A DNA stretch of 64,000 nucleotides, from NCBI RefSeq assembly GCF_054482595.1, contig NZ_CM137008.1. One strand, given 5' to 3'. This document shows, piece by piece, positions 24,721-30,129 of this stretch (positions are counted from its first letter, which is position 1; each line of letters opens with the position of its first letter). The notes under the pieces are model-generated. The model saw only the letters and a program-made list of their open reading frames with translations, had not been told where the DNA came from and did no database searches. The position numbers and the translations under genes were made by a program.

Positions 24721-24808
24721 TAGGTCGGATAAGACGCCCCGGCGTCGCATCCGACAATGTGCAGGCGTTGATGCCGGATGCGGTGCAAGCACCTTATCCG
24801 GCCTACAG
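24721..24808. repeat. REP element pair between phnD and phnE
   Basis: ggtcggataagacgccccggcgtcgcatccgaca ... gatgccggatgcggtg...ccttatccggcctaca. Confidence 0.8.
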
Positions 24809-24821
24809 ACCGGAGCCAAAC

Positions 24822-25601
24822 ATGCAAACCATCACCATCGCCCCACCCAAGCGCAGCTGGTTCTCGCTTCTGAGCTGGGCCGTTGTACTCGCCGTGTTGG
24901 TCGTCTCGTGGCAGGGCGCGGAAATGGCCCCGCTTACGCTGATCAAAGACGGCGGCAACATGGCAACCTTCGCCGCCGACTTCTTCCCGCCCGATTTCAG
25001 CCAGTGGCAGGATTACCTCACCGAAATGGCCGTCACGCTGCAAATCGCCGTCTGGGGCACCGCGCTGGCGGTGGTTCTCTCCATCCCCTTTGGCCTGATG
25101 AGCGCCGAAAACCTGGTGCCGTGGTGGGTTTACCAGCCCGTTCGCCGCCTGATGGACGCCTGCCGCGCCATTAACGAAATGGTCTTCGCCATGCTGTTCG
25201 TGGTCGCCGTCGGCCTCGGCCCGTTCGCTGGCGTGCTGGCGCTGTTTATCCACACCACCGGCGTGCTCTCCAAGCTGCTTTCCGAAGCGGTGGAAGCGAT
25301 TGAACCCGGCCCGGTGGAAGGCATTCGCGCGACCGGCGCTAACAAGCTCGAAGAGATCCTCTACGGCGTGCTGCCGCAGGTGATGCCGCTGCTGATCTCC
25401 TACTCCCTCTATCGCTTCGAATCCAACGTCCGCTCGGCGACCGTCGTCGGCATGGTCGGCGCGGGCGGGATCGGCGTCACGCTGTGGGAAGCGATTCGCG
25501 GTTTCCAGTTCCAGCAAACCTGCGCCCTGATGGTGCTCATCATCGTCACGGTCAGCCTGCTGGATTTCCTCTCTCAACGGTTGCGTAAGCACTTTATCTG
25601 A
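24822..25601 (+). CDS. phnE: phosphonate ABC transporter permease (intact reading frame)
   Basis: 259 aa from ATG at 24822 ([19 protein letters not shown]...), uninterrupted to the stop; the track ORF starts upstream inside the REP element. Confidence 0.88.
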
Positions 25602-25621
25602 TTAGCGAGGCATTGATAGCT

Positions 25622-26347
25622 ATGCACTTGTCTACACATCCGACCAGCTACCCAACACGCTATCAGGAGATAGCCGCAAAACTTGAGCAGGAGCTTCGTC
25701 AACACTACCGCTGCGGCGACTATCTTCCCGCCGAGCAGCAACTGGCGGCGCGCTTTGCGGTGAACCGCCACACCCTGCGTCGCGCCATCGACCAACTGGT
25801 GGAAAAAGGCTGGGTACAGCGCCGTCAGGGCGTCGGCGTGCTGGTGCTGATGCGCCCGTTCGATTACCCGCTCAACGCCCAGGCGCGTTTTAGCCAGAAT
25901 CTGCTGGATCAGGGCAGCCATCCCACCAGCGAAAAACTGCTGTCGGTGCTGCGCCCGGCCTCCGGTCACGTCGCTGACGCGCTGGGGATCAAGGAGGGCG
26001 AGAACGTTATCCACCTGCGCACCCTGCGCCGGGTCAACGGCATCGCGCTCTGTTTGATCGACCACTACTTCGCGGACCTCACCCTCTGGCCGACGCTGCA
26101 ACGCTTCGACAGCGGCTCGCTGCACGATTTTCTGCGCGAGCAAACGGGGATTGCACTGCGCCGCAGCCAGACGCGGATCAGCGCCCGCCGCGCCCAGGCC
26201 AAAGAGAGCCAGCGTCTTGAAATCCCGAATATGTCGCCGCTGCTGTGCGTGCGCACCCTTAACCACCGTGACGGTGAAAGCAGCCCGGCGGAGTACTCCG
26301 TCAGCCTGACGCGCGCCGACATGATTGAATTCACTATGGAGCACTGA
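25622..26347 (+). CDS. phnF: GntR-family regulator of the phn operon
   Basis: 241 aa from ATG at 25622 (MHLSTHPTSYPTRYQEIAAKLEQ...); N-terminal GntR-type HTH. Confidence 0.9.
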   Translation: MHLSTHPTSYPTRYQEIAAKLEQELRQHYRCGDYLPAEQQLAARFAVNRHTLRRAIDQLVEKGWVQRRQGVGVLVLMRPFDYPLNAQARFSQNLLDQGSHPTSEKLLSVLRPASGHVADALGIKEGENVIHLRTLRRVNGIALCLIDHYFADLTLWPTLQRFDSGSLHDFLREQTGIALRRSQTRISARRAQAKESQRLEIPNMSPLLCVRTLNHRDGESSPAEYSVSLTRADMIEFTMEH

Positions 26348-27381: not shown

Positions 27382-28445
27382 TGTACGTTGCCGTGAAAGG
27401 GGGCGAGAAGGCGATCGACGCCGCCCACGCCCTGCAAGAGAGCCGACGCCGGGGCGATACCGATTTGCCTGAACTGAGCGTCGCCCAGATTGAACAGCAG
27501 CTTAACCTCGCAGTAGATCGCGTGATGACCGAAGGCGGCATTGCCGACCGCGAACTGGCGGCGCTGGCGCTGAAACAGGCCAGCGGCGATAACGTCGAAG
27601 CAATTTTCCTGCTGCGCGCCTACCGCACCACGCTGGCGAAGCTCGCGGTAAGCGAGCCGCTCGACACCACGGAGATGCGCCTCGAACGGCGTATTTCGGC
27701 GGTTTATAAAGACATTCCCGGCGGCCAGCTGCTTGGCCCAACCTACGACTACACCCATCGCCTGCTCGATTTCACCCTGCTGGCAAACGGCGAAGCGCCG
27801 ACGCTGACCACCGCCGACAGCGAACAACAGCCGTCGCCGCACGTTTTCAGCCTGCTGGCGCGTCAGGGGCTGGCGAAGTTTGAAGAGGATAGCGGCGCAC
27901 AGCCGGATGACATCACCCGCACGCCACCGGTTTACCCCTGCTCACGTTCTTCCCGCCTGCAACAGCTCATGCGCGGCGACGAAGGCTATTTGCTGGCGCT
28001 GGCCTACTCCACCCAACGCGGTTACGGGCGCAATCACCCGTTCGCGGGTGAAATCCGCAGTGGTTACATCGACGTGTCGATTGTGCCGGAAGAGCTGGGA
28101 TTTGCGGTGAACGTCGGCGAACTGCTGATGACTGAGTGTGAAATGGTCAACGGTTTTATCGACCCACCGGATGAATCTCCGCACTTCACGCGCGGCTACG
28201 GGCTGGTGTTCGGCATGAGCGAGCGCAAAGCGATGGCGATGGCGCTGGTCGACCGCGCTCTGCAAGCCCCGGAGTACGGCGAGCACGCGACAGGCCCGGC
28301 GCAGGATGAAGAGTTCGTGCTGGCACATGCCGACAACGTCGAAGCCGCAGGCTTTGTCTCGCACCTCAAACTCCCGCACTACGTCGATTTCCAGGCCGAA
28401 CTGGAGCTACTCAAACGTCTGCAACAGGAGCAGAACCATGGCTAA
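27381..28445 (+). CDS. phnI: C-P lyase core complex subunit PhnI
   Basis: 354 aa from ATG at 27381 preceded by ggagg; the track ORF is extended upstream. Confidence 0.9.
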   Translation: MYVAVKGGEKAIDAAHALQESRRRGDTDLPELSVAQIEQQLNLAVDRVMTEGGIADRELAALALKQASGDNVEAIFLLRAYRTTLAKLAVSEPLDTTEMRLERRISAVYKDIPGGQLLGPTYDYTHRLLDFTLLANGEAPTLTTADSEQQPSPHVFSLLARQGLAKFEEDSGAQPDDITRTPPVYPCSRSSRLQQLMRGDEGYLLALAYSTQRGYGRNHPFAGEIRSGYIDVSIVPEELGFAVNVGELLMTECEMVNGFIDPPDESPHFTRGYGLVFGMSERKAMAMALVDRALQAPEYGEHATGPAQDEEFVLAHADNVEAAGFVSHLKLPHYVDFQAELELLKRLQQEQNHG

Positions 28446-29283
28446 TCTGAGCGGCTACAACTTTGCCTACCTCGACGAGCAGACCAAACGCATGATCCGC
28501 CGCGCCATCTTAAAAGCGGTGGCAATCCCCGGTTATCAGGTGCCGTTTGGCGGGCGCGAGATGCCAATGCCGTACGGCTGGGGAACCGGCGGCATACAGC
28601 TCACCGCCAGCGTGATTGGCGAAAGCGACGTGTTGAAGGTGATTGACCAGGGCGCGGATGACACCACCAACGCCGTGTCGATCCGCAACTTCTTTAAGCG
28701 CGTGACCGGGGTGAATACCACCGAACGCACGGATGATGCGACGGTTATCCAGACGCGTCACCGCATCCCCGAAACGCCGCTGACCGAAGATCAGATAATT
28801 ATCTTCCAGGTGCCGATCCCCGAACCGCTGCGCTTTATCGAGCCGCGCGAAACGGAAACCCGCACCATGCACGCGCTGGAGGAGTACGGCGTGATGCAGG
28901 TGAAGCTGTATGAAGATATCGCCCGCTTCGGTCATATCGCCACCACCTACGCCTATCCGGTGAAGGTAAACGGGCGCTACGTAATGGACCCGTCGCCGAT
29001 CCCGAAATTTGATAACCCGAAAATGGACATGATGCCCGCCCTGCAACTGTTCGGCGCAGGGCGCGAAAAGCGCATCTATGCGGTGCCGCCGTTTACCCGC
29101 GTGGAAAGTCTCGATTTCGACGATCACCCGTTCACCGTTCAGCAGTGGGATGAGCCATGCGCCATCTGCGGAACGACCCACAGCTATCTTGATGAAGTGG
29201 TGCTGGATGACGCCGGAAACCGCATGTTTGTCTGCTCCGATACCGATTATTGCCGCCAACAGAGCGAGGCAAAAAGCCAATGA
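28438..29283 (+). CDS. phnJ: C-P lyase catalytic subunit PhnJ
   Basis: 281 aa from ATG at 28438 (MANLSGYNFAYLDEQTKRMIRR...); C-terminal cysteine cluster (CAICGTTHSYLDE...FVCSDTDYC). Confidence 0.9.
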   Translation: MANLSGYNFAYLDEQTKRMIRRAILKAVAIPGYQVPFGGREMPMPYGWGTGGIQLTASVIGESDVLKVIDQGADDTTNAVSIRNFFKRVTGVNTTERTDDATVIQTRHRIPETPLTEDQIIIFQVPIPEPLRFIEPRETETRTMHALEEYGVMQVKLYEDIARFGHIATTYAYPVKVNGRYVMDPSPIPKFDNPKMDMMPALQLFGAGREKRIYAVPPFTRVESLDFDDHPFTVQQWDEPCAICGTTHSYLDEVVLDDAGNRMFVCSDTDYCRQQSEAKSQ

Positions 29284-30038
29284 ATCAACCGTTACTTTCG
29301 GTCAATAACCTGACCCACCTTTACGCGCCGGGCAAAGGTTTTAGCGATGTCTCTTTTGATTTATGGCCGGGAGAAGTGCTGGGCATTGTCGGGGAATCCG
29401 GCTCCGGGAAGACCACGCTGCTGAAATCAATCTCCGCGCGTCTGACGCCGCAACTGGGGGAGATTCACTATGAAAACCGTTCCCTCTATGGCATGAGCGA
29501 GGCCGACCGCCGTCGCCTGCTGCGCACCGAATGGGGCGTAGTGCATCAGCATCCGCTCGACGGCCTGCGCCGCCAGGTGTCGGCAGGCGGCAATATCGGC
29601 GAGCGGCTGATGGCAACCGGGGCGCGTCATTACGGCGACATTCGCGCTACCGCGCAGAAGTGGCTGGAAGAGGTGGAAATTCCCGCCAACCGGATCGACG
29701 ACCTGCCGACCACCTTTTCCGGCGGTATGCAGCAGCGTTTGCAGATTGCCCGCAACCTGGTGACGCATCCGAAGCTGGTGTTTATGGACGAGCCAACCGG
29801 TGGGCTGGATGTGTCGGTGCAGGCGCGCCTGCTCGATCTGCTGCGCGGCCTGGTGGTGGAGCTGAACCTGGCGGTGGTGATTGTCACCCACGATTTAGGC
29901 GTCGCCCGCCTGCTGGCGGACCGTTTGCTGGTGATGAAGCAGGGGCAAGTGGTGGAGAGTGGGTTAACCGACCGCGTGCTCGACGACCCGCATCATCCGT
30001 ATACACAGCTGCTGGTGTCATCGGTTTTGCAGAATTGA
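29280..30038 (+). CDS. phnK: C-P lyase system ABC-type ATPase PhnK
   Basis: 252 aa from ATG at 29280 ([15 protein letters not shown]...); Walker [10 protein letters not shown]. Confidence 0.9.
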
Positions 30039-30039
30039 G

Positions 30040-30129
30040 CCGGTGCCGGATGCGGCGTAAACGCCTTATCCGGCCTACAAATGCGCTCCCCGTAGGTCGG
30101 ATAAGACGCGTCAGCGTCGCATCCGACAC
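30040..30129. repeat. REP element pair between phnK and phnL
   Basis: gccggtgccggatgcggcgtaaacgccttatccggcctacaa...gtaggtcggataagacgcgtcagcgtcgcatccgaca. Confidence 0.8.

Follow-up and report, generated by a model that had tools for sequence, protein, structure and literature searches.

What keeps two long gaps open in an operon whose other genes lie almost end to end, and do the repeats that fill these gaps affect its expression? We addressed this question for the phn operon, which serves phosphonate uptake and carbon-phosphorus (C-P) lyase, in a 64-kb stretch of E. coli DNA (64,000 nucleotides of NCBI RefSeq assembly GCF_054482595.1, contig NZ_CM137008.1), which is called the window below. 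The operon lies on the + strand and consists of 14 genes behind a single, Pho-regulated promoter, with phnM to phnP ending at 33700. Two of its junctions are long, phnD-E (105 nucleotides, nt) and phnK-L (110 nt), while all of the remaining phn junctions measure -14 to +24 nt, so that the tight packing which an earlier note on this DNA had described for the other genes holds. The same note had placed a pair of repetitive extragenic palindromic (REP) elements in each of the two gaps. We found both pairs to be present and, on balance, lean towards the reading, drawn from sequence comparison, that they act as messenger RNA hairpins which favour upstream over downstream expression, selected for at phnD-E and more opportunistic at phnK-L.

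REP pairs in the two gaps

REP units were searched for with degenerate Y and Z patterns at ≤ 3 mismatches, and the chance level was taken from 100 dinucleotide shuffles of the window. The two gaps hold four units with 0–2 mismatches to the patterns, lying where the earlier note had put them, against a shuffle expectation of 0.00. The parts of the two junctions are:

24720-24755, - strand: REP1, a Z2-like unit, GTCGGATGCGACGCCGGGGCGTCTTATCCGACCTAC; 2 mismatches, -20.0 kcal/mol, z -4.3
24756-24772, + strand: head-to-head linker between REP1 and REP2, 17 nt, with in-frame GTG 24759, TTG 24768 and ATG 24771
24773-24806, + strand: REP2, a Y-type unit; 2 mismatches, -19.8 kcal/mol, z -4.5
24812-24824, + strand: phnE Shine-Dalgarno sequence GGAG (24812-24815) and start codon ATG (24822), both unpaired in the predicted fold
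30045-30078, + strand: REP3, a Y-type unit; 0 mismatches, holding an in-frame ATG at 30050
30079-30091, + strand: tail-to-tail linker between REP3 and REP4, AAATGCGCTCCCC, 13 nt, invariant in 10 E. coli strains
30092-30127, - strand: REP4, a Z2-like unit; 2 mismatches, -21.3 kcal/mol, z -4.9
30139-30151, + strand: phnL Shine-Dalgarno sequence GAGG (30139-30142) and start codon ATG (30149), from sequence and gene placement

REP1 begins 3 nt past the phnD TAA (its local stem begins 7 nt past) and REP3 begins 6 nt past the phnK TGA. The order of units at phnD-E is therefore Z2-like (-), a 17-nt linker and Y (+), placed head to head, and at phnK-L it is Y (+), a 13-nt linker and Z2-like (-), placed tail to tail. 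All four units terminate in CCTAC on their own strand, which is the conserved GTAG/CTAC tail of the family, and they share its other features: they are Y or Z palindromes of about 34–36 nt with an internal bulge, they are extragenic, lying between a stop codon and a Shine-Dalgarno sequence, and they are multicopy, with the phnK-L sequence as query matching a median of at least 27–29 places per E. coli genome. At every position REP3 matches the Y unit of the REP325 array, which is located 8 kb upstream in the same window (100% identity), and the inner stem of REP2 differs from the consensus Y by one paired change, C-G to U-A. REP1 and REP4 share 92% identity and are both ~84% complementary to the Z2 unit of REP325; these Z units have the 36-nt length of the REP325 Z2 but carry GTCGGAT/ATCCGAC where REP325 has GCCTGAT/ATCAGGC. 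Each junction is a minimal bacterial interspersed mosaic element (BIME), namely a BIME-2-like Y/Z2 doublet in inverted orientation. No repeat features are listed in the K-12 annotation (NC_000913). The cognate transposase of the family, RAYT (TnpA-REP), is not to be expected in a stretch of only 64 kb. Across the 64 kb of the window there are 18 REP-pattern units in total, including two Y-like units (+) and one Z2 unit (-) at 53880-54098 and a degenerate Y unit at 3239-3272.

When folded as RNA in the sense of the mRNA, every unit has a predicted energy between -19.8 and -22.3 kcal/mol (z between -4.3 and -4.9), and each whole gap folds into one long inter-REP hairpin, of -50.5 kcal/mol at phnD-E (z -5.0) and -61.0 kcal/mol at phnK-L (z -6.7). 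The nucleotides left unpaired on the two sides of the predicted gap hairpin number 3 + 15 at phnD-E and 0 + 5 at phnK-L, and the 15–20 nt 3' of the hairpins hold the Shine-Dalgarno sequence and the ATG. Since nearly all of the insert is taken up into each hairpin, the stop codon on its 5' side would remain spatially close to the start codon on its 3' side. If the modelled folds are right, this may be the reason that genes linked in translation tolerate palindromes between them.

Four other element classes were considered for the gaps and set aside. An intrinsic terminator was ruled out at both junctions by the lack of any terminator-like match in a + strand scan and of a U-run, the sequences just 3' of the hairpins being AGACCGGAGCC and CCCGAACCACG. 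An internal promoter for phnE or phnL was ruled out by the same kind of scan, which gave no promoter-like site on the + strand, and the BIME-1 or RIP-RIB (IHF-binding) class by the absence of the IHF consensus WATCAANNNNTTR from either strand of either gap. The Rfam model for the nucleoid RNA naRNA4 (RF02564, gathering threshold 59.5 bits) gave the phnD-E pair 69.1 bits when read on the minus strand and 50.5 when read on the mRNA strand; the phnK-L pair did not exceed 42.7 bits. As the model was built from REP325 and captures a Y-linker-Z2 pair, the match shows REP-pair architecture only and not HU binding; a naRNA4-type nucleoid RNA was judged unlikely on this ground and because a 2026 preprint contradicts the nucleoid model.

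Alleles, relatives and gene starts

Both junction segments match E. coli strain XH990 at 100%, both long gaps are letter-for-letter equal to those of K-12 MG1655, which lie at NC_000913.3 4,323,231-4,323,335 for phnD-E and 4,317,896-4,318,005 for phnK-L, and the segments were found in ~5,387 of 5,426 complete E. coli genomes. The occupant is not always the same. Among these 5,426 genomes phnD-E carries the REP pair in 3,873 (~71%) and a different, GC-rich palindrome in 1,331 (~25%), while for phnK-L the corresponding numbers are 4,839 (~89%) and 545 (~10%). The alternative palindrome has the form CCCTCTCCC..GGGAGAGGG(TTAGGGTGAGGGG) and is present singly (61-nt gap) or doubly (125-nt gap) at phnD-E and doubly (176-nt gap) at phnK-L; judging by sequence, the single form seems to have arisen from the double one by deletion between direct GGGAGAGGG repeats. 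We call the palindrome BoxC-like, as it probably belongs to the BoxC repeats of E. coli. The median E. coli genome has it at 17 places, the richest at 32, which is consistent with the BoxC family, listed at 22–32 copies. A BoxC-like pair of the same family as these alleles is also found in the window at 33713-33822, directly 3' of the phnP stop. No empty junction allele was seen among the ~5,387 E. coli genomes with the locus, and every allele seen retains a hairpin.

We compared diversity in the gaps with that at fourfold-degenerate sites from yjdN to phnL in 8 diverse strains with REPs at both sites, where pi was 0.121 and 411 of 1,379 sites were segregating. These strains were chosen by their divergence around phnD-E, and hence only the phnK-L comparison is without ascertainment bias. 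The Fisher P values below are against the fourfold sites:

phnD-E gap: pi 0.014, 4/89 segregating, P = 7e-9
phnK-L gap: pi 0.009, 2/110 segregating, P = 1e-13
yjdN-phnC promoter region: pi 0.022, 11/132 segregating, P = 1.2e-8

Diversity in the REP gaps is thus 8–14 times lower than at the flanking fourfold-degenerate sites, and the unique linkers between the REPs are near-invariant too. This points to purifying selection or else to evolution of the gaps in concert with the other members of the REP family.

Outside the species we recovered 80 loci with PhnI, in which phn genes were placed by tblastn and among which there was no other Escherichia species. The phnD-E gap was ≥ 30 nt in 40 of the 41 genomes in which both genes were found. 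Compared with dinucleotide shuffles it folded at z ≤ -2 in 34/40 and at z ≤ -3 in 25/40, from Enterobacteriaceae to Vibrio and Pseudomonas, while among the control gaps phnC-D was structured in 0/24 and phnE-F reached z ≤ -3 in 3/26. The hairpin occupants are mutually unrelated in sequence: species-specific REP pairs in Enterobacter, Lelliottia, Citrobacter, Cedecea and Buttiauxella agrestis, BoxC-like elements in Kluyvera, Leclercia, Enterobacter spp. and a Buttiauxella sp., and, in Vibrio, Photobacterium, Pseudomonas, Amphritea and others, a plain GC-rich hairpin 3–11 nt past the stop which is sometimes followed by a U-run. Going by the predicted folds, what phnCDE operons conserve 3' of the binding-protein gene is a structured element and not a particular sequence.

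The history of phnK-L differs. In the 14 closest Enterobacteriaceae loci this junction is empty in 5 (7–10 nt) and carries 1–4 species-specific REPs in 9, and REPs are found there independently in some Pseudomonas and alphaproteobacteria. The segment which carries the phnL Shine-Dalgarno sequence and ATG is homologous to the entire 7–10-nt phnK-L gap of the insert-less genomes. In this empty state phnK-L and phnO-P are the sole non-overlapping junctions of the phnG-P block. Elsewhere in the relatives REPs were seen at phnE-F (two loci), phnN-O (one locus) and phnO-P (two loci).

The genes on either side of the gaps, with their neighbours, are placed as follows:

22887-23675, + strand: phnC, from the open reading frame (ORF) listing and annotation
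23700-24716, + strand: phnD, periplasmic phosphonate-binding protein, with TAA stop at 24714-24716, from its ORF and translation and from the NCBI Prokaryotic Genome Annotation Pipeline (PGAP)
24822-25601, + strand: phnE, permease, intact, 259 amino acids (aa), from the PGAP start and ORF
between phnE and phnK, + strand: phnF to phnJ, from gene placement
29280-30038, + strand: phnK, with TGA stop at 30036-30038, from gene placement
30149-30829, + strand: phnL, from gene placement

The ORFs of phnE and phnL can be extended upstream, and the earlier note had called these extensions artefacts that begin within the repeats. Their being artefacts is supported by three lines of evidence: PGAP starts phnE at 24822 in every non-K-12 strain fetched, in strains with the alternative repeat the frame is closed by a stop codon 15 nt upstream of the phnE ATG and by another 51 nt upstream of the phnL ATG, and homologues of PhnE and PhnL in other genera align from residue 1. 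Genuine repeat-encoded N-terminal extensions of either protein were ruled out by the PGAP starts and the stops of the BoxC alleles. Their placement is correct for phnE, whose extended ORF begins at GTG 24759 in the BIME linker, but not for phnL, whose extended ORF begins at 29531, inside phnK; the only in-frame ATG that the phnL frame has within a repeat is 30050 in REP3. The curated start of the K-12 pseudogene phnE1 corresponds to ATG 24771 (NC_000913.3 4323281), 17 codons upstream of the PGAP start. It is probably 17 codons too far upstream, and it could not be conserved because of the in-frame stop which the strains with a BoxC allele have 15 nt upstream of the phnE ATG. It should also be noted that phnD and phnE share a reading frame in which the 105-nt REP gap is fully open, the nearest upstream in-frame stop being that of phnD itself; this is probably coincidental.

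Within phnE, at 25227-25242, the octamer GCTGGCGT occurs twice in tandem, vs three times in K-12 MG1655, and phnE is in frame in the window because it has two copies and not three. This tract is the known phase-variation or cryptic-allele site, here in its ON state. Further upstream crfC is an intact ORF of 742 aa in the window (18788-21016), and in the XH990 annotation it is frameshifted (2,228 nt), so that the window may come from a strain other than XH990 in spite of the full match at the two phn junctions.

Proposed effect on expression and its rivals

According to the earlier note, REPs inside the operon could stabilise upstream message or attenuate downstream expression. This idea agrees with published REP behaviour and, at phnD-E, with the structured gap in 34 of 40 genomes, but at phnK-L the comparison with relatives indicates secondary insertion. 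In the phnC-P mRNA the repeats would fold into two local hairpins of about -20 kcal/mol at each junction, or into one inter-REP hairpin of -50 to -61 kcal/mol. As they lack a U-run, the hairpins should not be efficient intrinsic terminators. Most likely they would block 3'-to-5' exonucleases and bring about partial, probably Rho-assisted, attenuation of transcription, and the outcome of either effect would be more phnCD message than phnE-K message and more phnE-K message than phnL-P message. We rank this explanation first because exonuclease protection and attenuation would both shift expression the same way, in line with the conserved hairpin at phnD-E. That junction would be a selected "hairpin slot" 3' of the binding-protein gene, occupied in enterobacteria by the lineage's own palindromic repeat, whereas phnK-L would be a recurrent landing site at which any effect of separating the genes of the PhnGHIJK core complex from phnLMNOP is secondary. 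A broader version, in which the phnD-E slot is selected across Gammaproteobacteria and has been taken over by one unrelated mobile palindrome after another (REP pair, BoxC-like element or species-specific REP), is offered tentatively from the sequence comparison and is the more doubtful of the two. If it were true, selfish repeats would serve as interchangeable modules setting the ratio of binding protein to permease, and the segregating REP and BoxC alleles of E. coli would amount to natural variation in the expression of phosphonate uptake and C-P lyase.

Published data on REPs in general and on this operon bear on the proposal. The 2026 preprint reports that REP325 is a partial Rho-dependent terminator which also stabilises upstream mRNA (yjdMN), and that the log upstream/downstream ratio of tandem gene pairs has a median of 0.96 when they contain REPs vs -0.09 in controls. 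The one transcript dataset found for phn, that of Li et al. 2013 under phosphate starvation, shows a single phnC-P transcript with coverage falling along the operon, together with low-level sub-transcripts phnG-K and phnL-P, with the break at the K-L junction.

Several points weigh against the proposal. The 2026 preprint finds REP effects to be context-dependent and highly variable, and there is earlier reporter work without stabilisation. A REP just past a stop codon is reported to lower translation of the upstream gene, which would offset a gain at the mRNA level for PhnD and PhnK. The phnK-L gap is only 7–16 nt in Leclercia, Shimwellia, Serratia, several Enterobacter and Buttiauxella species and many others, and it is 30–58 nt and unstructured in Yersinia and many Pseudomonas; being short or unstructured in so many relatives, it suggests that no ancestral function requires a hairpin there and that the REPs were inserted secondarily and repeatedly. 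In E. coli ET896 (locus 6418-6506) a 16-nt deletion has removed the inner stem and loop of REP1, leaving a short GGTCGGATACATCCGACC hairpin. This is a natural partial REP knockout at phnD-E, and it indicates that the complete element is dispensable at least occasionally. Finally, the gaps could owe their low diversity to gene conversion or concerted evolution across the hundreds of REP copies and not to selection on these sites.

The last of these points leads to the explanation that survives best after our own, namely that the occupancy is selfish or neutral: mobile, REPIN-like doublets would gather in the non-overlapping phn junctions with no selected effect, and gene conversion (which a review proposes for REPs) or re-insertion would keep them uniform. 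The presence of REPs in every positive-spacing junction among the relatives (phnE-F, phnN-O and phnO-P) favours it, as do the loci with an empty phnK-L, the exchange of REP and BoxC-like occupants within E. coli and the variable copy number of REP325 among strains. It accounts poorly for the phnC-D gap, which at 22–34 nt was never filled in ~10 close loci with valid data, when phnD-E was filled in 12/12 close loci and is structured far beyond the taxa with enterobacterial REPs. The near-invariant unique linkers and the lack of an empty allele in E. coli also argue against it. Pure selfish occupancy is plausible, phnK-L above all, while for the operon as a whole we consider it unlikely.

A further explanation is that the repeats are a translational brake, in which ribosomes stall at a hairpin 3–7 nt past the stop, with mRNA cleavage and trans-translation lowering PhnD and PhnK. 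By sequence and predicted fold the first REP does lie 3–7 nt from the stop at both junctions, within the distance rule of the stalling model, which makes this a real rival for the outcome at the protein level. The hairpins of non-enteric phnD-E gaps likewise lie ~3–11 nt past the stop. Nevertheless, a binding protein is normally needed in excess, so that a brake on PhnD is counter-intuitive, and in the BoxC-like phnD-E alleles the hairpin is ~16 nt or more from the phnD stop, so ~25% of E. coli would escape the brake there without obvious consequence. We regard it as improbable. The explanations by a role in DNA, with the Y/Z2 pairs serving as gyrase (BIME-2) sites or as cruciforms bridged by HU and naRNA4 and not through mRNA, are the least supported and very improbable: the units are combined as in BIME-2 (Y + Z2), the phnD-E pair exceeds the naRNA4 gathering score on the minus strand, PU-BIMEs are reported to interact with gyrase and IHF, and HU/naRNA4 bridging of REP cruciforms has been proposed (PMC4550694), but the 2026 preprint found neither compaction of the nucleoid by REP325 nor a stable HU-cruciform-naRNA4 complex nor long-range contacts between REPs, neither gap has an IHF consensus, and such roles give no account of the unrelated hairpins in the same phnD-E slot in Vibrio and Pseudomonas.

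Comparison with known systems

REPs are the most abundant non-coding repeats of E. coli, and what they do is still a matter of debate. The phn operon provides a compact natural test bed for them: a single promoter serves its 14 genes, two REP pairs lie inside it, and there are ready-made alleles, namely REP, single BoxC-like and double BoxC-like in E. coli and an empty phnK-L in sister genera. If the hairpins set the PhnCD : PhnE-K : PhnL-P ratios, one promoter could supply at different levels a binding protein, a membrane transporter, the stoichiometric PhnGHIJK complex and accessory enzymes; if they have no effect, the phn pairs would be a clean case of tolerated selfish DNA. The element type and the proposed mechanism are already known, intercistronic REP pairs having been described since 1982–1987 and both phn pairs being present in the K-12 reference. 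A full-text search found nothing specific on the phn REPs themselves, and no prior description was found of the conserved phnD-E hairpin slot, the allelic replacement between REP and BoxC-like elements or the secondary filling of phnK-L, which are of modest scope.

A close comparison is the REP325/naRNA array, which occupies 21768-22250 of the window between yjdM and yjdN and in which Y (-) and Z2 (+) units alternate over five periods of 100 nt, each period scoring 102–111 bits against Rfam naRNA4. The K-12 array is described as having six units, and its copy number is polymorphic, since the yjdM-yjdN gap measures 159–557 nt among the E. coli strains fetched. REP325, which is 2.5 kb upstream, resembles the phn pairs in belonging to the same Y/Z2 family and in lying between two co-transcribed genes, but it has 10–12 units in 100-nt periods and not one pair per junction inside a 14-gene operon.

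Espeli, Moulin and Boccard 2001 are cited as reporting that extragenic BIMEs without a U-run lower downstream transcription. The phn setting differs in that there is a single Y/Z2 pair and a translated gene resumes 15–20 nt later. REP-dependent ribosome stalling was reportedly described by Liang, Rudd and Deutscher in 2015 (nrdAB), and its direction is opposite to the upstream bias proposed in the earlier note. BoxC is like the alternative phn alleles and the pair after phnP in being a GC-rich imperfect palindrome of similar copy number.

Parallels to phnD-E in gene order are malE-malF of E. coli and hisJ-hisQ of Salmonella, REP-bearing junctions which also lie 3' of binding-protein genes. Intercistronic REPs after the binding-protein genes of ATP-binding cassette (ABC) importers were reportedly described by Higgins in 1982 and Newbury in 1987, and a block to exonucleases is said to raise the message for the binding protein. 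As at phnD-E, the order in both is a binding-protein gene, a REP pair and a gene for a membrane component. Unlike these two systems, phn has its ATPase gene, phnC, 5' of phnD, which means that phnC would be co-stabilised.

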